64,000 nucleotides of DNA, taken from the NCBI RefSeq assembly GCF_018350175.1, contig NC_058368.1:10168001-10232000 (forward strand), written 5' to 3'. Below are positions 27,076 through 56,830 of the stretch, in pieces. Position numbers and translations under genes: made by a program. The stretch is from Felis catus (taxonomy: Eukaryota). Each line of letters opens with the position of its first letter. The stretch's first letter is position 1. Under the pieces are notes generated by a model that worked only from the letters and a program-made list of their open reading frames with translations, had not been told where the DNA came from and did no database searches.

Positions 27076-30000
27076 TTTAAAAAAAAAAAGGATTGTACTT
27101 CTGCAATGTTTCCATATCCTGGCCTACTCTCTTCCCTTTGCCCTCTTCCTGCAGAGGTCCAGTGCCCTCACTTCAGTTATCCAAGGTACTTCATTTAAAT
27201 GCCCATGTTCCCAAAGCATCCCTACTCCTTCTCCCCTCCACTACTCATCCAAATCCTACTCAACTCAGTTCGCCTCTGGCTCTCTTTCCCCTCCCCTCCT
27301 CATATCCGGGAAAAGCCTGGTTTGGCTGTTTGTGGTGTAAGACCCACCACTGTCAGGGAGGTTTTGTTCCAGGACAGACTCTATGTCCTTTTGGTCACAT
27401 GAAATAAAATTCCAGGGCACCAAGAGTAAGAGACTCTACTCAGAGGTTTTCCCAGGCTCTGTAAATTCAGTTTCTACATCCAGCATTCGAGTAATAACAT
27501 CCAGGATGCTCCGAAAGATGCCCTCTTAATCACTCAATAATCCTGAACCTTCAGGAGGACCCACAGTCTACCCTATAGCTTACAGCTGAGCCTCTGAGCG
27601 GCATAACCGGTCTACCTGTTTGTTCCTTTCCCGAGAGCCCAGATTATGAGCCCGATAACCTGAAATGAGATTACAAACTTCTTTTGCCTGACTTGGCAGC
27701 CAAAGAGATGCGTTTCTTCTGAGTCTCTATATTTCAAAAAAATCCCACTGAGCAAGAAATTTAGGCAAGGGACTAGCAAGTGTTACTCTCTCTGAGCACA
27801 AATACAAAAGGGCACGTACCTATGAAAAAGTCTAGGATCTATTATTGCCTCTGTTTCTTTAAGACGGAAATACTTACGTCGAAAAAGCAGCAATCTCAGG
27901 CACCTTTGGGGATTTTCCCGAGCAGCCCCCATAACACTCTTGTAAAATTAATAGTAATTAGGATTATTGCTTAAACAACTTGTCATTTATATCTAATTAC
28001 CATGCACTACAATAAAAATGATGACAGATTCACTTTGGTGTAGCCCTTATTTAATTACAATCCTTAACTTCTATGGATTTTGTCTTAATAGTTTCCTGCT
28101 TACTTGTTACATTGTCTGTCCAGAACTGAAAAATATTTGAGAAATTAGTAATTCTAGGCTTATATTGGGGTGTCTTTTTCTTCCTTTATCCTTTTTTCCT
28201 TAAAGCAGGGCGGGAAGAGCTCAGCTTGCTGTGTTTCGTCTTGGTCAGTGAAGGCGGAGATCCTGCCCCCACACACCCCCACCCCAAAGTCCTTTCCTAC
28301 TTCTGGGGCCACTTCTGAGAAGGCGGCTGCTTAGTCTGCTCCCAAGGGAGTTGCATGTGGGCTCGAGGGCAATGGCGGTGGAGTGGGACCCATGTTCCGG
28401 GCTGGGGTCTGGACAGCATCCTGGACGCCGCAGCCATCCTGGGGGAGCCGGTAACGCTGAGCCCAGACTTGCCCCACTGGACCTCAGCCTGCAGGGGAGT
28501 AGGGGCTGCTGAGAGCCAACCCCTCCCCCCCCCCCCCCCCCCCCGGCCTGGCTGCTTCGGGCCTGCTTTGCCAGGCAGAGGATGCGCAGCCACTCCATCC
28601 GGATGGAGGGTCTGGCTCAGGGGAGGACACCACCAACCCCGCAGGCCTGGCTTGGAGCCTGAGGGCAGAAAAGGTAAGGGGGCAGGGAGGGGGACCACAA
28701 CGTCCTGGGCTATGCGGTCTCTTGGGCAGAGCTCTGGGGCTTGGCTGGAATCCCCTAGGGTCCAGGGCCGATAACCCAATTTAAAGCCAGAGACCCTACT
28801 GGGTGCGCTGTGGTCTCCTCCCGCGTAAGGTCCTCCCTGTCCTTGCTGCTCCTTAACCACCTCTCCCCTAATGCACGCACCTCCCAGACCCTTCCGTCTA
28901 ACCCACGTGGCCAGCTTCGCCATGCTTCTTGCTCTCCCTCCTTTCCATGTCTTGCAACTTTTTTTTTTTTACACAGCCGGCTGCTTTCCACTATCATTCT
29001 TTGCTTTTCAAGGTCACAATTGCCTCCTCACATAAATCGGATTCATGCTAACGTGTCAAGGGTGTGAATACGTTCCAATTAATCCGTTTTATTTGATTTC
29101 AATTCAGCAAACATTTATGGGGCAATACCGTGTACGGAGCCCCAGAGAAAACTCAAACTTAAGTAAAATATAGTCTCTCGAGACTTTATACAACTAGCAC
29201 GGCTTTTCCTCACAGGACATGGTAGTAGGCTGAGATTTTTAAAATTTTAGTAACAGTGAAGTATTCAGGTAAATGTGTGCTAGAACTCTAGCAAGTACAT
29301 CAAAGCCTTGATTTCATAATTACTATTATTTAGGATGAGGCTAAAGAAGGTAGCATGTAAAACAAACAAGTCTATTTAAAGAAACATAGTAAGTAAATAA
29401 CAGAAATGACAAAAAGCCGGGCAGGGGATGACGGATTCGGATTCGTGGCTGCTTTTCGGAGGAGGAGCTCCGTAAGAGAGGAAGATTTGCAGATCAAAGA
29501 CATGCTCCTAATGAGGAGACGGGGAGGGGGCAAGAAAGGCTTCATGGAGGACGTGACATTAGAGACGGGTCTCCAAGGATGAGTAGGAGTTTTCCCAAGA
29601 CGGTGTGCAGTAGAGGCCATCCACATGGAGGAAACAGCACACGCCAAGTCAAGCGATTGAGGCACACGGGGCCCCGAGGGGCCGATACACGATGACTGCG
29701 GGACAGTGAGGTTAGAAGTGGATCATGAGGCGCGAAGAACTGGGTTTTGTTCTTTTCGCCGTTGTGACCCACGCAACCCATCTATCAAAGGGAGCTTTCC
29801 TGGGGACAGGATCTGCACACTGTGGGTGAGATCAACTAATGGAAAGTGATTTCCCGGAATATGACTGGCATCTAAAGGAAAGATGGACGGTCGTTCACAC
29901 CAGAGTTCTTCCAGAAGACGCGCAAGTGGTGTTTGGTGAAGCCTTTGTTTTCTGAGTGGGCGCTGCGTCATGATGGAAAGTGGGTGGCGGCTCTAAAAGT

Positions 30001-37695: not shown

Positions 37696-37749
37696 ATCGA
37701 ACATCTAATGACTCTAGAAGGGCTACAGAACATAAAAGCACTCTCTCAG
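37696..37749 (+). CDS. WDR95: Exon IEHLMTLEGLQNIKALSQ
   Basis: Long T tract with weak GAG acceptor; strong donor CAG|GTAAGA; 54 nt, phase 0. Confidence 0.65.
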
Positions 37750-38072
37750 GTAAGACTTGACCAGGTAAGCTTTCTAGATATTCATTGGGTAACTTGATTC
37801 TCTCTTCCATGGTTAATTTTTTGGTGAAAAGTACAATCTTTTAAAATTCCTATAAAATAACAATGAAAAAGAAATTCTCCTTGGTTGTCATTTCTTAATG
37901 GAATTAGAAACAAATAGCGAATGCATGAGAGAAATGAACAAGGGGGGATAGAATGTTAGAAGTTGACAAGGTTTAGGTAAGTCTAATTAGACATTCGATC
38001 CTTTGGGTTCTTGCTCCTAGACTAAACAAAAATGCAACTATGTTCATCACTAATTGTTCTTTTTCTTCTAAG

Positions 38073-38156
38073 AAGTATGGAAAGAGAGGAAGACAGCTGC
38101 TGGACATGGAAACATTCAAATGCATAATGAAGCAGAGTATGAGGTCACAGAGTAAA
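38073..38156 (+). CDS. WDR95: Exon KYGKRGRQLLDMETFKCIMKQSMRSQSK
   Basis: Acceptor ttctttttcttctaag| (NAGNAG), donor AAA|GTAAAT; 84 nt, phase 0/0; EF-hand-like LD.E.FK.I. Confidence 0.78.
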
Positions 38157-38321
38157 GTAAATGGATTTTATAAATGTTGGGTCATTGAAGTCACAGTTAA
38201 AACTTCACCTGTATGAACTAATTAGGCTTGATGTTCCATCTGTAAGATCACTCTCAACTCTAAACTGTGATTTTTGCTAGTATCTACCTGATTCACAGAA
38301 CAGTTTATTTGGCAAAATATT

Positions 38322-38543
38322 AAAAAAAATTTTTTTCTGTCACGTTTATTCATTTTTGAGAGACAGAGAGAGACAGAACATGAGCGGGGAAGGGGCAGAG
38401 GGAGGGAGACAGAATCTGAAGCAGGCTCCATAGGCTCTGAGCTGTCAGCACAGAGCCCGACGTGGGCCTTGAACTCACGAACTGCAAGATCACGACCTGA
38501 GCCGAAGTCGGATGCTCAACTGATTGAGCCACCCAGGCGCCCC
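38322..38543 (-). mobile_element. Can-SINE
   Basis: Full-length reverse copy. Confidence 0.95.
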
Positions 38544-38651
38544 GGGGAAAATATTTTTAAATTATTTAAAAAATACTAGACCAACAAGGTATTTAGAGAT
38601 TTTTATTGAAAAGAAGGGAAAAGGCTCTTGTTGGATCACTAATCATGTCTG

Positions 38652-39101
38652 TAGATGGTCCCCGACAGATGATAGTTTGACTTTAAGATGTATGTGAAAG
38701 TCATATACAGTCAGTAGAAGCCATATTTTGAATTTTTATTTTTTCTCCAGAGTTAGAGATGTGGTCTGATCCTCTCTTGCAATGCTGGGCACAGCCACAG
38801 TGCCTAGTCAACCACGCGTTCATGAGGGTCAAGCTGATAATACGATGACAACCATTCTGTACCCAGACAACCCTCAGTATAGTATTCAATGCTTTATTAT
38901 AAAAGAGACTTTGTGTTAGATAATTTTGCCCAACTGGAGGCTAATGTAAGTGCTCTGATCACGTTTAAGGTAGGCTAGGCTAAGCTACGATGTTTGATAG
39001 GTTAGGTATATTAAATGCATTTTCCACTTAAAATATTTTCAATTTACAGTAGGATTATCAGGACCTACCCTGATAATCCTAAGTGGTGGAAGATCTATCT
39101 G
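38652..39101 (-). mobile_element. TcMar-Tigger non-autonomous element (MER47/Tigger5-like)
   Basis: 'aaggtaggctaggctaagctacgatgtttgataggttaggtatattaaatgcatttt' hallmark; ends resemble CAGATG.TCC TIRs. Confidence 0.8.
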
Positions 39102-39217
39102 TTGTTTCCAAAGAGTGTGGACATCAATTCTACCCCCAATCTGCTGGAACTAAAAGGTTTAAACATTCCCTCTGCAATCTTGGTTAGCTCAGTTGTTAGC
39201 TCAGAATATGAAATCTT

Positions 39218-39439
39218 GCGGCGCCTGGGTGGCTCAGTCGGTTGAGCGTCTGACTTCCGCTCAGGTCATGATGTCGCGGTTCATGGGTTCCAGCCCCAAG
39301 TCGGGCTCTGTGCTAACAGCTTGGAGCCTGGAGCCTGCTTCGGATTCTGTGTCTCCCTCAATCTCTCCCCTTCCCTGCCCCTGCTCACACTCTCTCCTCT
39401 CCATCGCTCTCTCTCTCAAAAAGAAAAAAAAAGAAAAAA
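39218..39439 (+). mobile_element. Can-SINE
   Basis: TSD agaatatgaaatctt at 39203-39217 and 39440-39454. Confidence 0.97.
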
Positions 39440-39479
39440 AGAATATGAAATCTTAATGAATGGCCATTCAGTCTCCTTT

Positions 39480-39803
39480 AGCGAATTACCACGACCTGGG
39501 TGGCTTATAAATAACCAACATTTATTCTCCACAGTTCTAGAGGTTGGAAGTCTGAGATCCGTGTCAGGTGAGGGTTGTCTTCCAGGTTGTAGACTTCTCC
39601 TTATGTCCTCATGTGGCAGAAGGGACTTGGGAGCTGTGTGGGGTCTCTTTCATAAAAGCACGAATATCATTCATAAAGGCTCCCTCCTCATGAGGGAAGC
39701 ACCTCCCAAAGGCCCCACCTCCTAATACCATCACATCAGGCTTTAGGATTTCAGCATATGAATTTGCAGGTGGGGTCAGGACACAAACATTCAGTCCATA
39801 GCA
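39480..39803 (-). mobile_element. MaLR solo LTR (MLT1A-like)
   Basis: 'gggtggcttataaataacc...acacaaacattcagtccatagca'. Confidence 0.85.
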
Positions 39804-40408
39804 ATAGATAATTATATTTATATAATTATTATGTATATATAATCATATTATGATAGAAGGGGCTCTTTAAGCTCTAGTGACTGAGGTTTCCTGATTACAT
39901 CATAAATCATATATAAAAGCAAATTCAAGGTAAAGCTCTTTGATCTTGTCCCTGGAATTTGAGCAAAAACATGCCCCTTCTAAGTATAAGCCCACAGTTT
40001 TAATGGCTACAGTAGAAGTTTAGGTGTGTCTAAAATTTCTCCTACAATGAGAAATGATCATTAAATGGAACCTATTTTTAAACAATCTCTCCTCTATTTG
40101 TGCAATACTATACGAAGAACTTCTGTTTGGAGGAGAGAGTGTTTTAAATGGATAAATTATTGGCTGATTTACCAACATTCCAGATCTTTTTAACCAAAGC
40201 AGTCTAATTACTTATATTCTAAGAATGTCTGGTCGCCTAGTCAGCCATTCCCTCCCTTATCCTCTCATTCATTCATTCACTATATATTTAGTGGGCCAGT
40301 ATTTACTTAGTGAATATTTACTGAGGCTTTGTTTTTAGTCCCTGTGGCACACAGTCAGTCAAGATATAGTCTCCGCCTGCAGAGAGATCAGAGCCACTCT
40401 AAAATTCA

Positions 40409-40635
40409 GGGGTGCTTGGTGGCTCAGTCTGTTAAGCGTCTGACTTCGGCTTGGGTCATGATCTCACAGTTTGTGGGCTTGAGCCCCGTGTCAGGCTCTG
40501 TGCTGACAGCTCAGAGCCTGGAGCCTGCTTCGGATTCTGTGTCTCCCTCTCTCTCTCTCTGCCCCACCCACTCCTGTTCGCACTCTGTCTCTCTCTCTCT
40601 CAAAAATAAATAGACACTAAAAATTTTTTTTTTTT
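40409..40635 (+). mobile_element. Can-SINE
   Basis: Full length. Confidence 0.95.
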
Positions 40636-41725
40636 AATTCAACATGGGGGCCGTGGGGGCATATCATCCAGACCAGGCAGTTGGGCCTGGAGGAGACAAA
40701 CCTTGGGCTAAGTTTTGAGGGATGAAGGGAATTGCTTCATAAAGGAGGGACAGACAGGCAAGGTCTTCCAGAAGAGGGAACAGCATTTCCAGAAGCACAT
40801 AGGCAAGAGCCAGCATGCTGCTGTTATACCTCTAGGGGAATCTGGGCAACAAAATGTAGGACAAGGACCAGATTATTTGGGGCCATTTGTACTAAGGTTA
40901 ATTTTATCCAGTCTATCACCGAGGAGCCATGAAACTGTGTCTTTCTTATTTAATCAAACAATGAATTGATTTTTGACCGTGTGACCATACCGTCTTAGAA
41001 TCTTTACATATTTCATTTCATTAGTCTCTGAACAGGAGAATAGCTTTGTCGGAAAGCATTCCTATTCTTATTTTGTAGCTGAAAAGACAGAGGGTTGGAG
41101 AATCTGAGTAAGTTACCTGAAGCCCCTCAGCTACTCAGGAAAGCCTTCGGGATTCAAACTCTGGTCTGAAACTAATGCCCAATATATCGGTTAAGATTAG
41201 GTTCACCTACAGGGTGACAGAAAATGCTAAGCCACCAAGACGGAAGCAAGATAAAAATTCTTTTCTCTCTCACGTAAAAAGCCAGGTAGTCAAGGGGCTT
41301 CATGAAGTCATCAGGGCGAGCCTGTCCTGCTTTGCTGCTCTCTCTCCCACCTTCCCCACGTGGGCTCCTCTTCATGGCTCACGATGGCTGCTCAGACTCC
41401 AGCGGACATGCTGTCATTCCAGGCGGCAGGCAGAGAGAAGGCGCAAAAAAGGATGCACTCCTTTCCTTTAAGGACAGTTCCCAGAAGCTGCCTGTGACGT
41501 TTTTAACTTTTCCACCAGAAATGAATCACGTGTCGTATATAGCGGCAAAGGAGGCAGGTAAAAGTCATCTTTTTTCCGAGGAAGCATGTATCCTGTTAAA
41601 AGCTGTGCATTCTCTTAGTAAGGAAGGATGGCTAACACCCCCACGTCCTCTCCACTGTTCTAGGGTTTCATAGTCTAGTCCCTGCTAAAAACCAGGAAGT
41701 ATCTCCTTCGCTCTTTCTTTTTAAA

Positions 41726-41940
41726 ATTTTTTTTTCAACGTTTATTTATTTTTTGGGACAGAGAGAGACAGAGCATGAATGGGGGAGGGGCAGAGAGAGA
41801 GGGAGACACAGAATCTGAAACAGGCTCGAAGCTCTGAGCTGTCAGCACAGAGCCCGACGCGGGGCTCGAACTCACGGACCGTGAGATCATGACCTGAGCC
41901 GAAGTCGGATGCTCAACCGGCTGAGCCACCCAGGCGCCCC
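41726..41940 (-). mobile_element. Can-SINE (SINEC_Fc-like)
   Basis: Full-length reverse copy. Confidence 0.96.
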
Positions 41941-43109
41941 ATGATTTTTTCTTTTAATATCCTCAGAATCTAGTAACATGTGCATGACACGTGCAGGTGA
42001 CAAATAAATGTTGTTGAATGAATGGATGACATGAAGACAGTGTGGCCACCGTGGACTTGAAGGGGTCTGTCCTAGCTTTCCTAGAAATTAAGAGGCGCTT
42101 CTTTTAACCCGACAGCGGTCTATGGTTACCTGGAGCAGAGAACTAATCATTTTGCATCACCTCATTTGCTTGTTTGTGACCCCGCTAAACAGCGAATGCT
42201 GTGAGGGCCAGGTAACATACCTTTCAGCTCTTGAGGCCTCAGCCTCTGGCAGCGCCCTTGGTATACCACTGGTGCTCAACCTGTGTGTCTTCTATGCGTG
42301 AGTCAACGTGTGGAGGAAGCAGGCAAGTGTCTGTCAGAATCCCGCATCATCACACCGAGAAGGCAGAGCCTTGGGCAAAATCCATATGCATAGACATATC
42401 CCCACCCCAGCTCTGGACTGGAAGAGAGACCATCTGATGGCCCACGTCCTGCCTGAGGGCCAGCTCCTGCGAGGGCTTGCGATGATGCGTGACCCTTGCC
42501 GGATACACCTTGTCCGGAGCTCCAAGATGCCCCGGTGTACCCACAGCTCTCCTCCACTCTGCCTTGTGGTGACAAGGTGGTCGAGGCGGGCAGCCTGAGC
42601 CCAGGCAGCGATTTCTCCCATCCTGAACTTTTCTCTTTCCAGTTCCATCTCTGGCCCTAGGCTCTTCTTGAGTCCATCCCTCTGGGTGTTTTGGTTTGTT
42701 TGGGCATCCAATTCAAAAACACTTGTTCCATATTATGTGCATGGTATTGTCTAGTTGCCATGGTGAAGTCTGCACTGGCAGCCGCATCCGGGAGGACAAT
42801 ACGTCTCCATTGGAGCATGACTTAGAAGGAACTGGGGCCGCGCTGAGTTCCACAGCCAGGGTCTTTGCTCACAACCTCTACACTGGCACGGAGTGTTGAT
42901 CCACCAAGGGGCAATGCCTTGGTGTCTTGAACACCCAGGCATTATCTTATTTTTACCCTTTTACTGCCATTACTACACAAAGGCAAACACACCCGGGACT
43001 TGTAAGAGAAAAGGCAGCATCTCACTCCCCCAGATAGACGTATAACCTTTCCATTTCTGTTGAAGCTACCTTCTGCATACATTCCTGAAATTACAGAAGC
43101 TTGGGGTTT

Positions 43110-43330
43110 GAAACGACTTTAGAGGTTACCGAGTATATAACCCCTTCCATGCTCAAATTTTCTTCTCTGAGAAGCCATGAGTCAGCATATGCCTGAATAC
43201 CTTCAGCTAAAGAAAACACGGTGCTTTACAAGGCAGCCCATTTCAAGGTTAGAGAGCTGTGACCTTAGGAACTTTTTCCCCTTTATGAACTGAAATTGGT
43301 CTTTCTTGACATTTTACCCATTAGCTCAGT
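43110..43330 (-). mobile_element. CR1/L3 remnant
   Basis: 'gcctgaataccttcag...acaaggcagcccatttcaaggttagagagctgtgaccttaggaacttttt' resembles the CR1/L3 3' region. Confidence 0.55.
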
Positions 43331-43334
43331 TCTT

Positions 43335-43383
43335 TTGAGCCACCATAACAAATTAGTACAAACCTAGAAGTTTAAAACAATAT

Positions 43384-43418
<35 letters not shown>

Positions 43419-44045
43419 TTTTAAGAGGGGGTGGGGAGGAGAAAGGGCAGAGAGAAAGGGAGAGAGAGAATCCCAAGCAGGCTCTGTGCTGTGGGCTCAG
43501 TCTCACGAACCGTGAGATCACGCCCTGAGCCAAAGTCGAGAGTCGGACATTTGACTGATGGAGCCACCCAGGTGCCCCCAACAATCCATATTTATTATCT
43601 CACATTTTTTGTGAGTTAGGAATCTAGTCATGGCTTAGCTGGGTTCTCTGCGGTAGGGCGTCTCATGAGCGTCTCATGAGGCTGCAATCAAGGTGGTAGC
43701 TCTGATCAGCGTCTCATCTGAAAGCTTGACTGGGGAAGGATCCACTTCCAAGGACACATGGTTGTTGCCAGGCTTCATTTCCTTGCTGGCTGTTGCCCAG
43801 AGGCTGCCCTCAGTTCCTTGCCATGTGGGCTTCTCATTAGGGCAGCTGACAACAGAGCAGCTGGCCTCATCAAAGCTAGCCAGGAAGAGAGCCTGTGAGC
43901 AAGGCCCAAGTTAGGTTCTCATGTCATCTAATCATAGAAATGACATTACCCTCTACATTAAGGTATTCTATTGGCTACAAGCCAGCTGCTCAAGGGGAGG
44001 GGATCACATAGGCCATGAATACCAAGATAGAAGTTCTAGGAGCCC
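43335..44045 (-). mobile_element. MaLR LTR (MLT1-type) split by a SINE
   Basis: 'atttattatctcaca...ggcttagctgggttctctgc...ggctgcaatcaaggtg'. Confidence 0.75.
43381..43579 (-). mobile_element. Can-SINE with (TAAA)n tail
   Basis: Reverse copy with internal deletion. Confidence 0.92.
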
Positions 44046-44279
44046 CAGTATCTCATGGGGAAAGAGTTTTAGGGTCAGCGCACTGAACTCCAACTAACCA
44101 CCCTATTCATGTTTTGGAGCAGGCATTCCAGAGATCTTTGAGTATGGTGCATTTTAATATGAAATTTATAAATTGGAAAAATTAAGATTTCCTCTCCTTC
44201 ATCCTCTCCCCCAACAACCTAGTAAAGAGTTTACTCCTGTGCCATCTATAAACGGGTTTTTTTTTTCCTTCCTTTCCAG

Positions 44280-44345
44280 AGGATTGAACAAATAGAACAG
44301 CTTTTCATGAAAATAGACTATGAATCAGTGGGCAGAACTGAATGG
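44280..44345 (+). CDS. WDR95: Exon RIEQIEQLFMKIDYESVGRTEW (EF-hand-like loop)
   Basis: Strong acceptor ttttttttccttcctttccag|, donor TGG|GTAAGT; 66 nt, phase 0/0. Confidence 0.88.
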
Positions 44346-45573
44346 GTAAGTTGGGTTATGCTTTATAGTCAAATTGAAGATTAGTAAGGAAAACACAAAA
44401 ACTGTTGGTGCCGAGTATGATATGTCCCTCAGTGCCTTCATCTACTTGAAACTGATCTGAGAGGATATACTTGTTCACAATTTTCAAATTTCATAAGGTC
44501 AGGTTAAACTCGGAATAGTTTAACTGGGGATTTCAGTAGCTAAAGCAAGTTTCAAGAAGAGTGTCCTAAAACCGGAGAATAAAGGATACATTTGTCACCT
44601 TACCCCAAAGCAAAAGTGAAACATCTGAGCAAGAAATTCTGTGACGTAATTGGATCAGTTAATACATGTCAAGTGTTTAGAACAGGGACAGTCACAAAGT
44701 AAATTGTCAACAAATATCATCATCATCATTATTATTAATGTTACCTAATTTTGATTGTATAAGAATAAGGAGCTGAGACACCTGCTTTAAACATTCTCTG
44801 CCTTTGTGTCTGTCAGTGCCCTTCTATTGTTCCAGGATGAATTAAGTTCTAAAATGACTTCTCTATTCAGACCTGGGGCCAATTCTCCAACCAAATCAAT
44901 ACAAGTGTTTACATTGCCATCTGATTTGAATAGGAAATCAGGATTCCAGAGAAGAGAAAGCTCTAGAGCAGTGGGGCTTTGGGGGCAGTGGAGAGAAAAG
45001 AGATGTTCCCAGGCCCTACAGGTCCCCCCACCCTGTGCCTATGACCACAGTTCTTTCCCCTAGGTATACCGCTGAAATTCTAAATGAGGCATATATCCTG
45101 GTGGGTGGGAACTGGGCAGTGGGATCAGTAAGGACTCGAGTCTCTGGCCAGCCACTTACTAGTTGTTTGATCTTGGGCAAGCTATGTAGCTTTTCAAAGC
45201 TTGGGTTTCCAAATGTGTAAATGGGAAGAACAGTGGTACCTATCTCATACAGTTATCATGAGAATTGTGAGGAAGATCCAGTTTGCGTGGAACATTGCAT
45301 ACTTTCAATCACCACCATCACCATCTTCTTTAGAGAGACGGAGAAAGAGACTGGAGGTGGGGAAGGGAGCCCAAGCTGGGTGACAGGCCTCCAGCCCCAG
45401 CTGAATGGGCACACCCAATTATTACTCTTGAGTTTTTGGCATACAAATGAACCAGTTTCTACAAATAATTAGGTCGTGTCCAAGAAAGGAATTATCCATA
45501 CCCTGATGGTAGAGAGAACTTTTGAAAGGAAGAAGCGTAGTAGATGTTTAATGAACCTCCTTTTACCCTCCAG

Positions 45574-45699
45574 GATGGCTTCTGCACATATCTGCAGCTC
45601 GAGTATTCAGAGCAAGCGGATGCTTTGGCCCGACAGAAAGAGGTTTCCTTCCATCTGCCTGCTGTGCTGCTGAAGTTGAAAAGAAGAAAGAGAGTTTCT
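45574..45699 (+). CDS. WDR95: Exon DGFCTYLQLEYSEQ...LKLKRRKRVS
   Basis: Acceptor ccttttaccctccag|, donor TCT|GTATGT; 126 nt, phase 0/0; continues the W|D.FCTY motif. Confidence 0.82.
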
Positions 45700-46439
45700 G
45701 TATGTGATTTTCATTTGATAAGGATGCTGAGTGCTCCAGTTTGATTTTATTTGCTATTTTAAACTGCTCTTCAAGTGGCATGATTGCAGAAATTGTGTCC
45801 TTGAATGTAATATATTCACGTTGTCTTTTGCTAGTCTATAGAATGCAAATAAAATATGATCTCTATATGTAGTACAAGATAATGCTTCATTTTGCTTCTA
45901 AAATCAGATGGAGTAATGAATTACACATGATTCCATCATGGAATTTGTCGTATGTCTTAATGAATGACAAATGGAAAAGAATTTTCCTTCTTTTTTTTTT
46001 TTTCCCTGTTAAATGATTATTTCAGTTTAGGTAGCTAGCTATCCTAGGGTTTGTCTTCAGAGAACTTATTGAATCACAGAATCAGAAATTCAGAAGGCAA
46101 AAAGCATCTGGGAAGTAGACTTAGGATAGGAATAAAAATGCCTGACCTATTTCAGAATATATGCTCTCTTTAAAGTCTTTATTATTATTGTTATCTCATT
46201 CAACAAATAGTTGAGTCTCCGACATAGCCTAGGCTCTCTGCTGGGTGCTGGGGGTATAGAAACTCACCTTTGCCCTCTGGAAACTTATCATCTACACTAG
46301 AAGTTCCTTGCAATCTTAAACCCGTTAGGCTGTGAAATAAGCCCGCCCTAGAGAGAGGGAATAAAGGTGGCTCTTTGAATCTATGTAGTAAGTTCTTTCT
46401 ACTTGAAGGAGAACATCAAATTTTTAAAAACTATCATTT

Positions 46440-46648
46440 TTTTAAAAGTTTTATTTATTTTTGAGACAGAGAGAGACAGAGCATGAGCAGGGGAGGGGCA
46501 GAAAGAGAGGGAGACACAGAATCCAAAGCAGGCTCCAGGCACCGAGCTGTCAGCACAGAGCCCGACGCGGGGCTCGAACTCATGGACTGTGAGATCATGA
46601 CCTGAGCTGAAGTCGGACGTTTAACCAACTGAGCCACCCAGGTGCCCC
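46440..46648 (-). mobile_element. Can-SINE
   Basis: Reverse copy; degenerate TSD taaaaaact..atttt. Confidence 0.96.
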
Positions 46649-46744
46649 TAAAAAACTTTAATTTTAAGCACACCTACAGTCTTATGAAATTGTCCTATTT
46701 AAAAAGGCGTATTTTTGTTTAATTCCCACTCTTCCGCACATTAG

Positions 46745-46827
46745 GACAAGTCCATCAGCCGGAAGCCCAGGTGAGTGACAGATGTCATCAGCATGCCACA
46801 GTACAACAAACTGATCATAGCGACTGG
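46745..46827 (+). pseudogene. WDR95: Exon DKSISRKPR*VTDVISMPQYNKLIIATG with in-frame stop
   Basis: Acceptor ...cttccgcacattag|, donor TGG|GTGAGT; 83 nt, phase 0/2; TGA at 46772-46774 where the WD40 motif predicts W(VTD). Confidence 0.82.
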
Positions 46828-47835
46828 GTGAGTGTCTGCAGCTCTTCAGTTGGAAGGAAACAGTCGTGGTATGACATCCATTTCCATGTGTGTTTACACA
46901 GCCACGTACACATTTGTGGTATTTGAAAGTCCTGAAGCCCTTTTTAAAAAATGCTGGCACTCATAATATCAATCAAAGCTACTTTGCAAAGTTATGGCCT
47001 TGGTTGGCCCATTGCAATGATGTCATTGCCTCAAACACGGGCAAGAGGCCCTCTTTTGGAATACTTCCAGAGTGAAAGTATGGGCCAGATGGGGACGACA
47101 TCAGTCTTGTGACCTTTTAGCACATCTTATTTCAGATTCAACATAATATTCCTATTTTATTATCCACCAAAATTCAGTCCAAAGTGCTCTGGACAGATTC
47201 AAAAAAGTCAAATCCCCAGTAAAAAATGATGCTCGTTGCTGAAGAGCCTCAGAAAAATGGGTCTGGGGCTGGGAAGGAAGATCCCGAAGGTTTTGCTCAT
47301 GGCAATGAAAGGAAAATGAATGGGCACCACCCTGGGCTGCTTGGTTAACCTCAGTCATGGCCTGGGCGAAGGGGGTGTGGCCTGGTGGGAAGGAAATTGG
47401 GAGAACTCCAAATCAACGGGGAAGCAAAAGCAAGTTCAACAGGAGGGTTAGGGGTACAGGGTCGGGGATGGGAAATGTGATCCGGGGCGGACAGACCGTG
47501 GCCTCTGGCTCTGGGGGCAAGACTAAGGGAAGGGGTGGAGCTTGAAAGGAATTCCCACAGCCCCGCCTACTGGGACTCCCCCTGACTCCCCGCAAGCTGG
47601 GGGTTCTCTCTTCTCCACCTGATCTCCTCCAGAGGCCCCTGGTTTCCTAGGCTTCAACCATTTTAATGAACAAACAGTTAATCCAACCTCAGATCATCGA
47701 GGCTACTAAATACAATTAAATGTAATAATTAAAATATATTTGTTAATATATTAAAATGTATTCATATAATTAATATTAACTGCTAAAAAACAATAAACCT
47801 GGGTGTATACTTTCATCCGTCCCAGTTTGATTTTA

Positions 47836-48064
47836 TTTTATTTTTATTTTATTTTTTTTTTCAACGTTTACTTATTTTTGGGACAGAGAGAGACAGAGCA
47901 TGAACGGGGGAGGGGCAGAGAGAGAGGGAGACACAGAATCGGAAACAGGCTCCAGGCTCTGAGCCATCAGCCCAGAGCCCGACGCGGGGCTCAAACTCAC
48001 GGACCGTGAGATCGTGACCTGGCTGGAGTCAGACGCTTAACCGACTGCGCCACCCAGGCGCCCC
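47836..48064 (-). mobile_element. Young Can-SINE (SINEC_Fc)
   Basis: TSD gtcccagtttgatttta at 47819-47835 and 48066-48082. Confidence 0.97.
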
Positions 48065-48920
48065 TGTCCCAGTTTGATTTTAAAAGCCATGCTTGATAAT
48101 GTAATTATCATGTGTTTTGCACACGTAGCAGTTCAGAGGTTGCAGTCACCTACTAGAGATTCTGAGCTGACAATTCAGAAGATGAGGCAAGGCTTATGAC
48201 AGCAGGAAGCCACTTGAGCTGCAGGGCAGGTGAAAAGGAGGTGGAAAAAAGGACATTTCACGCTGAGGGAAAGACAAGGCTTTGGAATTTAGAGAGTGAC
48301 CCCTGTTTGTTCCATGCCAACAGGTCAAAGCAGTAAGTTGTTTTTCTAACACCCACAGTCAGCTCCAAAGTAGACAGGCTAACAGAGGAAGGAAGGGGTC
48401 AAGGGTGCAGGCTGGAAAGGTGGGAAATTAGGGGAGCACCGAGTTAACCCCTTAGTCTACAGAAAGAGGCTTGGCCCTCCACTTTGCAGATCTTTATAAT
48501 ATGCAGTAAATAACAGCCCACATTTTGAGCCCTTAGGAAATCCCAAGTCCTGGACTAATCACTTTCACACACGTCTTCCCATTTAACTCTCCGGAAAGAC
48601 AGGAACTGGTAGGATCCACATTTTTACAGGTAAGGGGCCGAGTGGTGAGCTGGGATGTAATGCCCCAACTACTGGCCTGTGCCAGGCTCCTGATGGTCAA
48701 GGACAGGCCAGGCCGGTTTCGAAGCAGGCAGAAGACATGCCCCCAAACGGTAGGATAGCAGAGGGAGGCCTCAGGTTCAGCTAGAGGGGTTGCTTGGTGT
48801 GACAGGTGTTTTACTGATCAGGGGTCTCTGTTTTGTGGAATCCATGGAATATAAAATATGTTTTACAAAAGTGAAGTGAGGAGTGTAAGTTTACTCCAGC
48901 TGTGCTTGATCTTTGAACAG

Positions 48921-49013
48921 AAACCGTGAAACCCAGCTCTATGAACTCTCCAACCTGGAGCCTTACTGTCACATCGGCGGCCTGGAAGCTGTCCCTCTGA
49001 GACTGGACTACTG
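48921..49013 (+). CDS. WDR95: Exon NRETQLYELSNLEPYCHIGGLEAVPLRLDY
   Basis: Acceptor cttgatctttgaacag|, donor CTG|GTAAGA; 93 nt, phase 2/2, in frame with the previous exon. Confidence 0.85.
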
Positions 49014-49037
49014 GTAAGAGCAGCTCCAGAGCCAAGC

Positions 49038-49056
49038 AGGCCTCAAGGGGGCGCTC
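49038..49056 (+). promoter_or_regulatory. Candidate CTCF motif
   Basis: AGGCCTCAAGGGGGCGCTC versus consensus TGGCCACCAGGGGGCGCTA. Confidence 0.45.
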
Positions 49057-50136
49057 TCACCTGGTCAGCAGGGCCTTCCCTCCTCTCCCCTTGGGCAGTT
49101 ATGTTCAGTTGTGTTCAATCAGTATTGAATCAGTAAATGTCAGATTCAGTTTCAGTAAATGTCAGGGTTGCCATGCAGCCTGTGGTGACCACATCACACA
49201 TCACAGTACTGCCCAGGAAGGAGGACCCTTCTTGCATCTAATAAGGAAAGGGAAGTCTAGAGATGTGAAATGATTCTTAGAGGCATGCAATTATGAATTA
49301 ATCTGTGTCTTCAATGTGACTGGATTAACTTTCCTGAAACTCGACTCGGACCACGTTAGTCTGCTTTTTAATGGTTGCCAATTCTCTCTCCAAAAATATC
49401 CACACCTTTAAGAGATATCCAAAAATATCCAAACCCCCCTTTGCCTTTCCAGCCTTCAGCCCCCCTGAAGCCTCAGGCCTCCCAACCACCAACATAGCTA
49501 AATAGAGACCTCTCAAGTGGGTCAGGCATCGTCACCACCACGCTGCTCCCAATGCTTCCTTCTTCCCCAACCACCCATCCCATCATGTTTCTTGAGCACC
49601 TACTGCGCATACTCATTGTTGGATGTAGGACCTGTGCGTGAATGAGACGAGATTCCCAGTGTCGCAGAGTGGGTGGTTCCTACTGAAATCCTACCATTCT
49701 TCATGGTCCTAACCTTCGTGGATTCCCCTGATTCTCCTCTGTACCCAAAAACCAATGTCCCCTGGAAGCTTCCCCATCCTTCGGATGCGGTGGTCCCGCA
49801 TGTTGCTGGGGCACAGGTCCCAAGTAACTCTCAAGTGGCACCAGTGCCTTCGTCTCTGCTGTGTGCTCTCTGACCCCTGCCCAGTGACTGGCAGGCACGT
49901 AGCAGGTTCCCAAGAAATGTTTGTTGAGTGACCAAGTCAGAAAACTCTTATTTAAGTGGATGAAAGGAGGCTCCAGTTTTATTTTGCCTTTCGCTTCCCC
50001 CTCTTTCTTTTTCTTCTTATGAGATAGAAGCCTTTTAGATGTTCAATGATTTCAATAAAATATGTCTTTCAGTTCTCTTCTACCAGTCATTTTGTATTTT
50101 GAGAAATAGGGAGAAAAGTTGATGGATTAAAAAACA

Positions 50137-50158
50137 TGTTTTTAATGTTTTATTTATT

Positions 50159-50194
<36 letters not shown>

Positions 50195-50361
50195 CACAAG
50201 CAGGGGAGGGGCAGAGGGAGAGAGGGACACAGAATCTGAAGCAGGCTCCAGGCTCTGAGCTGTCAGCACAGAGCGTGACGCGGGGCTTGAACTCACAAGC
50301 CATGAGATCATGACCTGAGCTGAAGTCGGACGCTTTACCGACTGAGCTACCCAGGCACCCC
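50137..50361 (-). mobile_element. Can-SINE
   Basis: TSD gttgatggatt. Confidence 0.96.
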
Positions 50362-51199
50362 TAAAATGTTGATGGATTTAGAAGAAGTGGTTGGAAAGCA
50401 AACTTGTGGCCAAGTGGGTTCTCATAGAACAAAGCAAGGGAGAGAAAACCAGACCTGCCGGGCCTCCCTCTTGTGTAAGGCAGAGCCATCCCCCGGAAGG
50501 CCACGGAGCCCCAGCTGTTGGACTGCCCTTCTTCATCCCTATCAGAAGCCCCATTCCTGTGCCAAAGGTGGCCTCCGCCCGTAGTTCATGATGAGGGCTT
50601 GGAGACTTTCCCTGCACTAAGGGGCCCACATGACCATGGCACCTCATTGAGTTGTGTGTAGTGATTCATTGCCTTTTACCCAAGGCATCACACAGTTTCC
50701 TTGAAAATGAAAGACTGAGTTGTCACTGCTTTCAAGGAAGGACACTTTGATGAGCAAAGAAAGATGACATCTTGAGGGAACTCATTCGTCCAGGCAAAGA
50801 GAGTGCAGCTCAGCAGGCTATGCTTGTCTCTTGCTCCCCTGGTCCCCTAAGAAGACATCAATGTCCATCAGCCCAGCTCAGGAAGCTGGGCTTCTCCTGG
50901 GATGGACTGGGGACCCTGGAGAAGGCAGGACAGGGTGATGGATCCAGAAGTCAGCCCTTTTAGTTATCTCTGGGGACCTGGCCAAGTCATGTGTTCAGTC
51001 TTGAGGTGGGGTGGCTCATGTGCAAAACAGAGATGGTAGTTGTGTCTCCGGGCAGTGTGGTGAAGTCAGAAGGGCACACTGCAGATAAAGGCCTTAGCAC
51101 AGTGCCCAACAGAGCACCTACTCCCTTCTTCTTCTCACCCGATGTGCTGTGAGCCATGAGAACAATGCTTGATGGCCCCCAGGGCTTCTGTCCCCCTAG

Positions 51200-51830
51200 A
51201 GCTCTTCAGACTCCTCTCATTACACTCTGCACTCTCTCTCAACTCTCAGGCTAGCCTCTCTGGCCTCATTCAGCTCCTCAGCCTTGCTCAATACTTTCGC
51301 CCTTCAGGGCCTTTGCACATGCTGTTCCCTTTGCCTGAAAGACCTCCACTCCCACCTTTCCCTTCAGATCTGAATTTAAATCTCATCTCCTCTGACCATC
51401 CTTTCCTAATGGCCTTACCAAACTATGTCCCCACTGACCTTGTTCATTTTCTTTATTGCACAGATTATGGGCTATGAGTATAGATGGTGAATTCTTTGTC
51501 TACTGTCACTAGATTGGGAGAGCAGGACCACATCTGTCTTGTCTCCCCTGGAAGCCCATACCTATTGCAGGGTATGATACATGATAGCTGTTCAGTATTT
51601 TTTAAAAAAATTGAATAAGCAATCAAAACTTTAGTCTCTTAAATCACATCGCTAAGATTCATGTTAGGTTGTCTAAACTCTTCATGCCTTAGTTTCCATG
51701 TCTATAAAATTGGTAAATAAAAGTAGTATCCACTTCATTGGGTTTTTGGGAAGATTTCATGAGACAGGACTTGTCAAGTACATGTCTGGCACACAGAAAG
51801 GGCTCTTTAAATTCTGGTTTCCATCATTAT
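51200..51830 (+). mobile_element. L2 remnant followed by MIR
   Basis: 'cagggcctttgcacatgctgttccc' (L2); 'ccttagtttccatgtctataaaattgg' (MIR). Confidence 0.65.
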
Positions 51831-52064
51831 CATGATTAGATGAACTCTTGAGAAGAGAAGGCTAAATGGAGAGCACCCTAAATTAATAAAGACTCTAGTC
51901 ATGAGGACCTTGTTATGCCTCATCACTCCTGGGGCTTGGAAGTGTGTGTGTGTGTATGTGTGTGTGGGGGGGGGAAGGGGGTCCTTTGCTATGGACTAGG
52001 GATTCAGGAGCTGAACACACAGGACACCTAGCCTCAAGAGGAGTATAGTCCAATGGATCTGAAT

Positions 52065-52440
52065 ATGTTAGTTGGCTTGGGCTGCCATAACAAAATATCA
52101 GAGTCAGCAGCTTTGACAACAGAAACTAATTTCCTCACAGTTCTGGATGGAAAATCCAAGATCAAGGTGTGAGCTCGTTCTGTTTCTTGTGAGGGCTCTC
52201 CTCCTGACTTGCAGATGGCTACCTTCTCACTGTGTCCTCACATGGCTTTCCCGTGGTGTAGATACATGGGAAAGAGAGAGATGTGTGGTTAAGGGCACTA
52301 ATCCTATCATGAGAGTCCTACCTTCATGAGTTCATCTAACCCTAATTTCCTCCCTAAGGCCCCATCCCCAAATACCATCACATTGGGAATTAGGGCTTCA
52401 CCATATGAATTCTGGAAACACAAATATGCAGTTCACAACA
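52065..52440 (-). mobile_element. MaLR solo LTR (MLT1A-like)
   Basis: 'gggctgccataacaaaatatcagag...cacaaatatgcagttcacaaca'. Confidence 0.85.
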
Positions 52441-54302
52441 GGGAATATTGACTGACATGGGTGTGCACTCTAATCATGGCATCTGTCTCCTGCTGAGAGG
52501 ATGGAGTCAGTGGTATTGGCCACACACAAGTCGCATCAATGAATGGGGCTGTCTGTCGATGATGTCATTCTCTGACAGCCCCTCCTCTGTTGCAGGGCTG
52601 TCCCAGGGGACTAGGAGTGAGGTTCCAGATACTTCTCTGCTCCTGTGAGGTGAAGACTAGTTTGTTTTTTTATTTCCTTTCATTCTCCCTCTGGTGTTTA
52701 GCTTTCAGACACACCCAACAAAAAGCCAATTTGAAACAGCACTTATAACCCATTATAACCCCCGCAGACCGGGCATGGGGGTGTGTTGGATGGAGAGGAC
52801 CCTATGTCACCCTAAAACCTCACTTAAGAGTTGCTGGCTTGATTCCTTACTGATTCCTTGCTAAGCAACGAGCACATAAACTTTGTATTTTATCTCCATT
52901 TCATCTCACCACCCCCTCACACCCAGACCTAATCACTTAGAGCAATATTAGAACCAACATGGTATTTATCATAATATCCTGGGAGAGTAGGGTTCTGGTA
53001 AGTACAATGAGAGCTAGTTACAGGGACTGAATGCTCCAGGGAGCATTAATCATGGTGTCTGAGTGCATTTGTGGGAGCACATTGTACACTAATTGCCATG
53101 TATGGAGCTCACTCTATCATTACCTTTAATATACAATTTCGCATACAATACAACTTCTATTTTGTTGCTTTCACACCACTGTAGACACACTCTAAGGTAT
53201 GCTTCAGCCTTAAAAAGTTTAGATATAAAAGTAAAGCAGAAAGCCAAGAGAAATATGTTTGATGAATGATAAATGTATGAGCCTAACAGGACCTTTGAAT
53301 CATAAAAGACATTCAATGACTATTTTTTGACGAAGCAAATAAATACAGAAAAAAATCAGTATTTTTTAATCCCAGCTTGATCTACTGCTGATCTGTCTGC
53401 TAACCTAGGACAAGACACTGCCCTCCTTACACATAAAAGAAACCAACAACAACAGAAGAAGAAGAAGGGGGAAAAACCCACTTTACTAAGGGATGTAACA
53501 TCAACTTACCTCAGAAGATTTCTTGGAAGAAAAACTTAAGTTTTTAGAGCCTTTTATTAGAACAACATGTCAGTAAAAGACCAAGTAGAGATTGACTTCA
53601 CTTCCAAAATTAGAGACATTCCGCTCAGTATATGTAAAAAAAAGATATTTGTATTTTGAATACTACTCATAAAATGAGCCCTGAAATGTAGAATAAAAAA
53701 ACACTATTTTTTCATGTTTGCACCCCAGTGAGGGAGGTAGACAAGCCAACCAATCTGTCTTTACAACATGAGAGTTAAGTGCTGGACAGAGACCTGTGTG
53801 AGGTGTGAAGGCAGGGGTCCCACCTGTTTGACTGGAAGCCAACAGTAAAGTCTTTGCGGGGGAGTGACCTTTGAACTGGAGGACAAATAGGTCATGGTCG
53901 GCCCAGGGACAGAAAGGACATTCCAATCCGTGGCAACAGTATGAGTATAGGTGGGGAGAGGGAGGAGTGAGAGATATTGAAGTTTTTGCAGAAACCAATG
54001 TACTTTGGAATGAAAACATCTTTTAAGGAAAGAGGGAAAGAAAACATCAGGAAAGACAAGAGATTTGCTAATGGAGGGTCATCTCTGCCCTGCTAAGCAC
54101 TTTGTCTTGCATCATCAGTTCTGTGTGGATTTTATCTTAATAAATATTTCATAGCCTCCTTGTGTTCAGTCTTAGAAAAGGAAATAGAACATTATATTGT
54201 ATACTACAGCCAGCAATGTATTTTCATTTGTGTAGGTCCAACATGGTCAAATAACGGCAATTTCTTCTAATTCAACTTGTTCTATAAAATACACATGAAG
54301 CA

Positions 54303-54536
54303 GGGTGCTTGGGTGGCTCAGTTGGCTGAGTGTCCAACTTAGGCCCAGGTCATGACCTCACGGTTCATGAGTTCCAGTTACATGTTGGGCTCACTCATGT
54401 CAGCTCACAGAGCCCACTTGGGATCCTCTGCCCCACCCCCTCTCTGCCCCTCCCCCAGCTCATGCTCTCTTTCTCAAAAATGATTAAGTATTTTTAAATA
54501 AATGAATAAATAAATAAATAAATAAATAAATAAATG
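54303..54536 (+). mobile_element. Can-SINE with (TAAA)n tail
   Basis: TSD aaatacacatgaagc at 54287-54301 and 54537-54551. Confidence 0.95.
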
Positions 54537-55281
54537 AAATACACATGAAGCTCACAAAACAGAATTTTGGTAGATTATAGATTTGGCTGCAAGAAATATA
54601 TTACCTCAAATATATTTCTGACTTTTTATTTAATGACAACATTGTTTGATATAGAAATACTCTTTGGGGATAAGCCTTTTTAGAAGGCTTGGGTTATATT
54701 TTATTTTATTTTATTTTATTTTATTTTATTTTATTTTATTTTATTTTATTGTTATAAGAACACTTAACATGAAATCTACCCTCTTAACAAATTTTTTAAG
54801 GTGATTATAGGTGCAATGTTACGCAGCAAGATCTCTAGGGCTCTATTCATCTTGCTTAAGTGAAACGCTATAGCCATTGACTAGTAACTCCCCATTTCCC
54901 CCTCTCCCCAACTCCTGGCAACCACCATTCCTTTCTCTGATTCTGTGAATTTGACTACTTTAGATGCCTCATATAAGTGGGATCATGCAGTGTCTCTCTG
55001 TGCCTAGCTGATTTATCTTAGCATAAAGCTTTTCTTGCCTTTCATTTTGGTATCACATCCATGAAATCTTTGCTAAGATCAAGGTCATGAAGATTTTCTT
55101 CTATGTTTTCTTCTAGGAGATTTATAGTTTCAGGCCTTATGTAAGTCTTTAATCTATTTTGGGTGGATTTATGTATGATGTAAAATAGGGGTTCAGTTTA
55201 ATTCTTTTGCATGTGGATATCCAGTTTTACCAACACCAATGAATGGATTACCTTTCCCCTATTGTATAGTCTTGATATTCT

Positions 55282-55297
55282 GTTTTTGTTTGCTTGT

Positions 55298-55338
<41 letters not shown>

Positions 55339-55420
55339 ACAAGTGAGTGAGGAGCAGAGAGAGAGAGAATCCCACGAGGGGCAAAGAGAGGGAGATAGGG
55401 AAAGAGAGAGAGACAGAGAG

Positions 55421-55458
<38 letters not shown>

Positions 55459-55633
55459 GAGGCTCACCTGAAGTGGTGCCCATGTTTGTTTTGTTTTGTT
55501 TCTTGAAGTAGGGCTCATGCTCACCCAAAGTGGGGCTTGAGATCACCCGATGCGGGACTTGAACTCATGGACCGTGAGATCATGACCTGAGCCAAAGTCA
55601 GATGCTTAACTGACTGAGCCACCCAGGTGCCCT
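55282..55633 (-). mobile_element. Long Can-SINE variant with internal repeats (SINEC_Fc3-like) and expanded GA tracts
   Basis: SINE head plus repeated ctcacc...g(c/t)gggg units and two long (GA)n runs. Confidence 0.85.
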
Positions 55634-55950
55634 CTTTTGAAGATCAGTTGACCATATATGTGTGGACTCATTTCTGGGCTCTCTATTCTGTTCCATTGGT
55701 CTTCATGCCGTCTGAAGACATCCCTCTTCATGCCAGTACCATACTGTTTTGATTATTACAGCTTTGTGATATAGTTTAAAATTAAGAAGAGTGATGTCTC
55801 CAGCTTTGTTCTTCTTTATTGAGATTTATTTGGTAATTTGTGATTCCATATGAAGTTTTAAATTGTTTTTTCTATTTCTGTAAAATTGACATTGGGATTT
55901 TGATAGGGATTACATTGAATCTGTAGATGGCTTTGGGTGTTAAGCCTTCT

Positions 55951-56406
55951 TTTTTTTTTAATTTTTTTTTAAATTTTTTTTTTTAACGTTTATTCATTTT
56001 TGGGACAGAGAGAGACAGAGCATGAACGGGGGAGGGGCAGAGAGAGAGGGAGACACAGAATCTGAAACAGGCTCCAGGCTCTGAGCTGTCAGCACAGAGC
56101 CCGACGTGGGGCTCGAACTCACGGACCACGAGATCGTGACCTGAGCTGAAGTCGGACTCTTTCAACGTTTATTTATTTTTGGGACAGAGAGAGACAGAGC
56201 ATGAACGGGGGAGGGGCAGAGAGAGAGGGAGACACAGAATCGGAAACAGGCTCCAGGCTCTGAGCCATCAGCCCAGAGCCCGACGCGGGGCTCGAACTCA
56301 CGGACCTCGAGATCGTGACCTGGCTGAAGTCGGACGCTCAACTGACTGCGCCACCCAGGCGCCCCTGAAGTCGGACTCTTAACCAACTGAGCCACCCAGG
56401 CGCCCC
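55951..56406 (-). mobile_element. Can-SINE, outer element interrupted by a nested SINE
   Basis: TSD ggtgttaagccttct at 55936-55950 and 56408-56422. Confidence 0.95.
56162..56365 (-). mobile_element. Young Can-SINE (SINEC_Fc) nested in another SINE
   Basis: TSD tgaagtcggactctt at 56147-56161 and 56366-56380. Confidence 0.96.
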
Positions 56407-56790
56407 AGGTGTTAAGCCTTCTAATCCATGCACACAGATATCTTTCCATTTGTTTGTGTCTTGTTCAGTTTCTTTCATCAATGCATTATAGTTTTCAGTA
56501 TGTAAATCTTTCACCTCCTTATTTAATCTTATTCCTAAGTATTTTATTCTTTTTGGTGTTATTTTTAAATGAGATTGTTTTCCTAATTTCCTTTTCAGAT
56601 AGTTCATTTTTAGTGTATAGAAACACAGCTGATTTCTGCACATTGATTTTGTATCCTGCAACTTTACTGAATTTGCTTATTATTTCTGACTTTCTTCTTT
56701 AATGGAGTTTATAGGGCTTACTATATGTAAGATCATAATGTCTGCAAACAGGAACAATTTTAATTCTTCTTCTCTGATTTGGATGTCTTT

Positions 56791-56830
<40 letters not shown>

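Follow-up and report, generated by a model that had tools for sequence, protein, structure and literature searches.

The domestic cat appears to have lost the gene WDR95. The window, i.e. the whole stretch of 64,000 nucleotides (nt) analysed here (Felis catus, RefSeq assembly GCF_018350175.1, contig NC_058368.1, positions 10,168,001 to 10,232,000 of the forward strand), contains the first eight exons, the 5' part, of felid WDR95. With a probability of about 0.88, the locus is a non-processed and probably unitary pseudogene, which was lost apart from the loss of the same gene in human and probably through relaxed selection. It carries frame-breaking lesions alongside intact relatives, and its introns are retained, hence it is not a retrocopy. 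Coordinates given below are positions within the window.

Lesions in felid WDR95

Seven lesions were found in four exons (1, 2, 6, and 7): three stop codons, three frameshifting indels, and one in-frame deletion (Table 1). An earlier sequence-only reading, confined to positions 37696-49013, had proposed a decaying gene with an internal TGA and other apparent lesions. The decay is borne out and the TGA is present in exon 7, but the largest lesion in that span, the deletion in exon 6, had gone unnamed. Read in the assembly from either of two start codons, the frame closes within exon 1 or exon 2; with the 35 residues missing from the first propeller and the further stop in exon 7, the sequence leaves no way to make a full protein. 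Models of the hyena, dog, and opossum begin at the internal one of these two start codons.

The block deleted from exon 6 is kept in all 178 stored proteins that span both of its flanks (248 proteins entered the comparison, among them isoforms and unnamed fragments). According to the structure predicted for the hyena protein, the block makes up four strands where the first propeller begins. No local repeats beyond chance were found flanking the deletion. The TGA in exon 7 replaces Trp186, a residue kept in 153 of 165 stored proteins and one of only 11 invariant columns in a 102-sequence alignment that includes distant paralogues. However, its bases also form a splice donor, CAG/GTGAGT, after 46770, which is of phase 2 like the natural donor. 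Use of this donor would skip the stop in frame at a cost of 19 residues (two strands), and the product would still be without about six propeller strands. Because of this possible bypass the exon-7 TGA is the weakest argument for the death of the gene, and more weight falls on the frameshift in exon 2 and the deletion in exon 6.

Table 1. Exons of felid WDR95 in the window and the lesions found in them.
Feature	Position	Strand	Remarks
Exon 1, coding part	18460..18524	+	matches ferret P0019 in tblastn (31 aa, 77%, E 5e-8); starts at the ATG matching the panda/raccoon dog start; 5' edge undefined; donor CAG/GTAAGA
In-frame TGA, exon 1	18502..18504	+	Leu in panda, ferret, hedgehog, rodents, pig, and wallaby; site lies outside the hyena and meerkat models
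Exon 2	28417..28673	+	257 nt vs 241 nt expected from panda
2-nt loss, exon 2	near 28460	+	from comparison with orthologues
TAG, exon 2	28500..28502	+	from comparison with orthologues
19-nt poly-C insertion, exon 2	about 28524-28542	+	run length error-prone
Frame from conserved internal ATG	28582..28662	+	shifts at the 1-nt loss; TGA 28660-28662 after 26 codons
1-nt loss, exon 2	about 28636-28640	+	from comparison with orthologues
Exon 3	37696..37749	+	first EF-hand helix
Exon 4	38073..38156	+	EF-hand region
Exon 5	44280..44345	+	second EF-hand
Exon 6	45574..45699	+	126 nt
35-codon (105-nt) in-frame deletion, exon 6	about 45667-45670	+	equals hyena residues 131-165
Exon 7	46745..46827	+	natural donor TGG/GTGAGT, phase 2
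TGA, exon 7	46772..46774	+	replaces Trp186
Exon 8	48921..49013	+	last exon in window
Intron 8	49014..64000	+	continues past window end

Exon structure and orthology

The six short GT-AG exons with matching phases described in the sequence-only reading are all present, as exons 3-8. Each is flanked by AG and GT, their end phases are 0, 0, 0, 0, 2, and 2, and splicing them in silico yields one frame of 168 codons with the exon-7 TGA as the single internal stop. They had been said to be largely missed by the open reading frame track, and indeed none of the six lies inside an in-frame plus-strand open reading frame of at least 80 amino acids (aa), because the exons are only 54-126 nt long. The proposed span held six real exons but started too late: exons 1 and 2 were found upstream by comparison with orthologues, so that the gene reaches 19 kb upstream of 37696. 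The eight exons are spread over 30.5 kb, and all eight donors are canonical. A tblastn search with the hyena protein returned eight colinear plus-strand matches in the window (E 8e-12 to 0.026); in a shuffled-copy control, 0 of 30 reached E<0.01 (best 0.17).

The 168-codon peptide is most similar to carnivoran proteins: 148 of 168 positions (88%) are identical in the spotted hyena (P0146, 1020 aa), 146 in the panda, and 143 in the ferret. Identity falls to 117 in the deer mouse, 110 in the opossum, and 87 in the sterlet, and is about 70% over the 168 codons for deer mouse, hamster, and rat. In a maximum-likelihood tree computed with IQ-TREE (27 chosen rows, WDR64 left out, the window row filling 17% of columns), the window was sister to the hyena with support of 98/94. 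This pair was joined by the panda (99/98) and then by rodents named WDR95, among them the Peromyscus 'WD40 repeat domain 95' (100/100). The WDR95 clade also contains marsupials, a lizard, frogs, and fishes, and extends out to Styela and Hydra (100/99). Anolis WDR49 formed a separate clade (100/100), and the window did not group with the named WDR49. A third vertebrate paralogue clade (wallaby, Spea), which we would guess to be EFCAB8, was likewise separate from WDR95 (100/100). A FastTree phylogeny of the N-terminal region alone (98 rows, from 111 candidates plus the window) placed the window in the same position. WDR64 matches the hyena protein with only 126 bits and 19% identity. When all cluster representatives were searched, one class had approximately 40-80% identity and a second approximately 30%; identity between WDR95 and its paralogues is about 25-34%.

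The assignment to WDR95 made in the sequence-only reading therefore stands, given the placement with named WDR95 and apart from WDR49, and the names of cluster members agree with it: some members of the rodent protein clusters are named 'WD40 repeat domain 95' or 'Wdr95'. The records so named belong to Peromyscus, Cricetulus, Phodopus, and rat, the mouse protein itself not being among the sequences. Otherwise, proteins of the WDR95 clade carry the NCBI names WDR49-like, WDR64-like, CFAP337-like, or WDY-like. Labels such as WDR49-like and CFAP337-like do not imply orthology, and one Anolis species carries both a WDR95-clade protein and WDR49. A tunicate protein (Styela, P0302) and a cnidarian one (Hydra, P0457) fall into the WDR95 clade, apart from WDR49, which the database names miss. 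Judging from these sequences, the WDR95 and WDR49 paralogues would have split early in animals or before.

A second felid sequence is available in the form of a 194-aa Iriomote cat model. Of its 97 residues that align, 90 equal those of the window, and its first 37 aa are read from intron DNA (89% match to the window). This agreement supports a felid origin of the DNA, and sequencing runs labelled feline metagenome contain part of the stretch.

Intact WDR95 is a protein of about 1020-1080 aa with a pair of EF-hands and two WD40 propellers, and the window covers only the EF-hands plus the start of the first propeller. The EF-hand-like segment and the WD40-like strands that had been noticed in the letters were both recovered in orthologues. 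PF13499 matched the N-terminal meerkat orthologue model slightly below its curated cut-off (E 2e-6, 28.4 bits vs 30). A WD40 domain was matched on the hyena protein, the predicted structure of which shows WD40 strands (mean predicted local distance difference test score, pLDDT, 81). A Pfam search with two single exons of the window gave no match. By sequence and by structure, the best matches in the PDB are WDR64 from bovine sperm and a chain of the N-DRC-associated model of Tetrahymena.

Timing, selection, and independence from the human loss

WDR95 models with whole open frames were found in the hyena (1020 aa), ferret (1082 aa), deer mouse (1084 aa), and hamster (1119 aa); compared with the panda (1074 aa), none has a missing block of over 8 aa. 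The pig model (1161 aa) covers all 303 conserved columns. In the meerkat models exon 2 is open and both the exon-6 block and the Trp are retained. On the evidence of these predicted proteins, the tested lesions are shown to post-date the split from hyenas and mongooses. The orangutan models also retain the exon-6 block and Trp186. Because hyena, panda, ferret, pig, and rodent models are whole and the orangutan keeps both the block and the Trp, the felid loss is separate from the human one, as the sequence-only reading had suggested.

Signs of relaxed selection are visible in the remaining codons. A column was called conserved when it was the same in 80% or more of 92 long homologues. Among five carnivorans, 6 of the 13 residues found only in the window fall at conserved columns, compared with 2 of 23 for the other four (hyena, meerkat, panda, and ferret) combined (p=0.016, Fisher test); with the stop and the deletion junction removed, the window count is 5 of 11 (p=0.024). 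Two of the affected columns are invariant in all 92 long homologues: Phe at the site of F48S (exon 3) and Gln at the site of Q221H (exon 8). E52G is a further change at a conserved column in an EF-hand exon. Q221H and I97T (exon 5) are common to the window and the Iriomote cat model, which has three private changes at conserved columns (C103R, Y211H, and Y219H). Since the former two are common to both and the Iriomote cat has three more, relaxation probably began before the window and Iriomote cat lineages split and continued in both.

Alternative explanations

Several points weigh against the interpretation of the locus as a dead gene. In feliforms, translation may skip exon 1 and the upper part of exon 2, as the hyena model begins at the internal ATG; if so, four of the seven lesions would be harmless by themselves. 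The lesions are known from assembled sequence, and the frameshift in the poly-C run may stem from faulty sequencing. Fourteen contig sets from eight studies contain 0.99 of 527 sampled words of 44000-49200, which is supportive, but each lesion affects only about 3 of the 527 words, and a share of 0.99 would still allow for a wrong call in one or two places. An intact duplicate may also lie elsewhere in the genome, although in three protein searches no long felid WDR95 model was found among the matches listed (in one search, 120 of 323), which speaks weakly against it. The test for relaxation is post hoc, has small counts, and relies on an amino-acid proxy instead of the ratio of nonsynonymous to synonymous substitution rates (dN/dS). 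Finally, no paper was found showing the docking site of WDR95 itself.

Nevertheless, it is extremely unlikely that the gene is intact and the lesions are assembly or base-calling errors. One frameshift does sit in a long C run and the lesions are read from assembled sequence, but among them only the length of this run is suspect: three nonsense substitutions, a clean 105-nt deletion, and two short non-homopolymer indels would make an unusual error pattern. Of the 14 contig sets, seven are marked as a possible source of the DNA, and the other seven, from four studies, are unmarked and hold the same 0.99 of words. The Iriomote cat model was the only felid name among the matches listed in the three protein searches, and exon 4, the last part of exon 6, and the greater part of exon 7 are missing from it. 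Assembly error is made less likely by the variety of lesion types and by this independent felid model, which leaves out the same regions and carries conserved-column changes of its own. The survival of a shortened product is also very unlikely. It could be made from an ATG in exons 3-5, with the 46770 donor skipping the stop, or be an EF-hand-only peptide ending at the exon-7 stop. The splice sites of exons 3-8 are all canonical, CAG/GTGAGT is a better consensus match than the natural TGG/GTGAGT and has the same phase, and the alternative join is open through exon 8. In-frame Met codons occur at positions 5, 30, 37, 41, and 56 of the joined frame, and several mammalian models (rat Wdr95l, dog, fox, fur seal, and deer) stop at exon 8. 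However, the two strands lost in the bypass come on top of the four lost in the 35-residue deletion, all within the first two blades of propeller 1, and the EF-hand exons themselves are changed at conserved columns (F48S, E52G, and I97T).

Erosion could also be older and more widespread than felids, dating to the feliform or carnivoran ancestor, in which case the hyena, panda, and ferret models would be corrected or recently dead. The hyena and meerkat models are without exon 1, meerkat and striped-hyena models are split or short, and of 303 conserved columns the hyena differs from the consensus of non-placentals at 33, the panda at 21; dog, goat, and pangolin models have extra changes too. 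We regard this as improbable. None of the records for hyena, panda, and ferret has LOW QUALITY in its name, and all stay open for about 1000 residues, and the hyena rate resembles that of rodents (28/293, 31/291), in which the gene is reported to be testis-enriched. Split models occur also in rat, stoat, treeshrew, and marmot, which looks like an annotation habit at the long intron 8. Even if the erosion were older, the loss would still be separate from the human one. A further scenario is compatible with a felid pseudogene: the locus may still be transcribed in testis as a non-coding RNA or a precursor of PIWI-interacting RNA (piRNA), which would keep its splice sites. This fits the intronic piRNA clusters reported for mouse Wdr95 (PMC13253961) and the eight of eight canonical donors in the window, but it is rather doubtful, as most GT-AG sites can stay intact by chance after a loss of 10-30 million years. 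Six RNA data sets that contain part of the stretch (shares 0.08-0.68) proved to be metatranscriptomes and were not taken as evidence of expression.

Intron 8 and neighbouring genes

Exon 9 and those after it were sought in the window, but 0 of 130 tiles after hyena residue 234 matched, and the best score of the Iriomote cat exon-9 peptide against the window was 31 of 87. As nothing after hyena residue 234 matches, the window ends within intron 8. A candidate small exon near 52.6 kb, picked by eye, was dropped after it matched no homologue. Intron 8 contains an element resembling a long interspersed nuclear element (LINE) on the minus strand at about 54700-60300 (edges placed by eye), into which several short interspersed nuclear elements (SINEs) are inserted. 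In one of five frames tested, it gave an RVT_1 match (E 8e-8 at 57170-57421, minus strand). At about 55975-56410, one SINE appears by eye to be nested within another.

The sequence-only reading had placed WDR95 between TEX26 and HSPH1. No match to TEX26 was found in the window, the 18 kb upstream of exon 1 included. In a sheep-hybrid model (P0024), a TEX26-like N-terminus (Atlas score 0.92, a lead) is fused to WDR95 exons. The fusion is probably a prediction artefact, and it hints that TEX26 and WDR95 are neighbours on one strand. Human WDR95P, at 13q12.3, adjoins HSPH1 in a published table (PMC7890067).

Possible wider loss in other mammals

Changes beyond the six common among placentals were counted in region 32-234. 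The window has 6, the Iriomote cat 5, the dog 5, and the goat 7; the counts are 2 in the orangutan (31 columns), 1 each in hyena and ferret, 0 in panda and pig, and 3-5 in rodents. As a measure of wider erosion across placentals the count is only suggestive. Dog, goat, pangolin, and orangutan models have extra changes at conserved columns, as do rodents to some degree. The Canis models P0013, P0014, P0188-P0193, and P0195 (dogs, wolves, and jackals) have Ser at Trp186 and other conserved-column changes, and the raccoon dog model skips exon 7. A further loss of WDR95 in canids is possible.

Truncated models from dog, fox, seals, deer, pangolins, and hedgehog initially looked like further losses. 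They carry little weight, since the models of rat, meerkat, stoat, treeshrew, and marmot, where the gene is probably intact, are split in the same way. Models P0207, P0189, P0194, P0009, and P0023, which come from rat, dog, fox, fur seal, and deer, all break off precisely at exon 8. Such ends before the long intron reflect either an annotation habit or a real short isoform. One sea-lion record carries LOW QUALITY in its name.

Placentals may have shed WDR95 repeatedly (in apes and cats, perhaps also in dogs, ruminants, pangolins, and seals) as WDR64 took over at the sperm site and WDR49 in other cilia, the locus perhaps persisting as a piRNA source. We put this forward as a tentative scenario, somewhat against the odds. 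If repeated loss were true, the keep-or-lose pattern would be a natural knockout series for one axonemal site, which could be tested against sperm traits and mating systems.

Function and meaning of the loss

WDR95 belongs to the FAP337/WDR49/WDR64 family. Its relatives in this family sit on the axonemal doublet, docked to the coiled coil of CCDC96/113 next to CFAP57 and the inner dynein arms. FAP337 is lost together with FAP57, and a role in stabilising the inner dynein arms has been proposed for it; among its relatives are given zebrafish WDR95, human WDR49, and EFCAB8 (PMC6761771). CFAP337 is described as having two WD40 propellers, binding CCDC96, and touching dynein d (10.1101/2023.05.31.543107). 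In bovine sperm, WDR64 binds on CCDC96/113 and was proposed to be the sperm paralogue of WDR49 (PMC11779644). The site is shown for these relatives, and by analogy WDR95 is inferred to sit at the same axonemal doublet docking site.

Mouse Wdr95 is reported among genes enriched in male reproductive organs and without a human orthologue, and its introns contain piRNA clusters. Mice with a 25.3-kb deletion in Wdr95 are fertile (10.2 +/- 1.5 vs 8.9 +/- 2.7 pups, p=0.11, 3 males). Histology and sperm shape of deletion males are normal, with the caveat that the allele left part of the coding region (PMC13253961). Selection would have been relaxed as paralogues do the same work, in sperm WDR64 at the docking site and in other motile cilia WDR49. 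That redundancy lies behind the relaxation is likely, given that mouse Wdr95 knockouts are fertile and that WDR64 occupies the family site in bovine sperm. A spliced transcript from the felid locus would presumably be a target of nonsense-mediated decay.

Rodent Wdr95 is one of the closest known counterparts. It falls into the same fully supported clade, and rat Wdr95l spans the same exons 1-8, but rodent frames are open and the felid frame is broken. Human WDR95P is the same gene and likewise non-coding, but represents a separate loss, judged from the intact carnivoran, pig, and rodent models between the two lineages. WDR49/CFAP337, WDR64, EFCAB8, Chlamydomonas FAP337, and Drosophila WDY have the same architecture of EF-hands plus a double WD40 domain and are paralogous to WDR95. 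With lineage-specific unitary pseudogenes in general, of which felid TAS1R2 is an example, felid WDR95 shares an apparently single-copy gene, retained introns, several independent lesions, and intact outgroups. ZP3r, too, has reportedly been lost repeatedly in primates. Unlike other such pseudogenes, WDR95 has no known trait tied to its loss, and the mouse knockout is without a fertility defect.

No paper on WDR95 loss in cats was found, subscription journals and genome-wide loss tables lying outside the search. Tables of the latter kind, such as TOGA with a mouse reference, may presumably already list it. In the main text of a preprint on cheetah pseudogenes, supplements apart, 'WDR' does not occur (10.1101/2024.04.26.591110). 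WDR95 loss is unlikely to be the cause of the poor sperm quality reported in cheetahs.

The felid loss reads as a case of paralogue redundancy and not of adaptation. For surveys of gene loss it supplies one small, clean case: a genuine but unremarkable unitary pseudogene of a gene for which no essential role has been shown. The analysis also corrects misleading names (WDR49-like, CFAP337-like, and WDR64-like) for a distinct paralogue. To the known human loss of this ciliary gene, the clade of which extends to cnidarians, it adds a separate one in felids.

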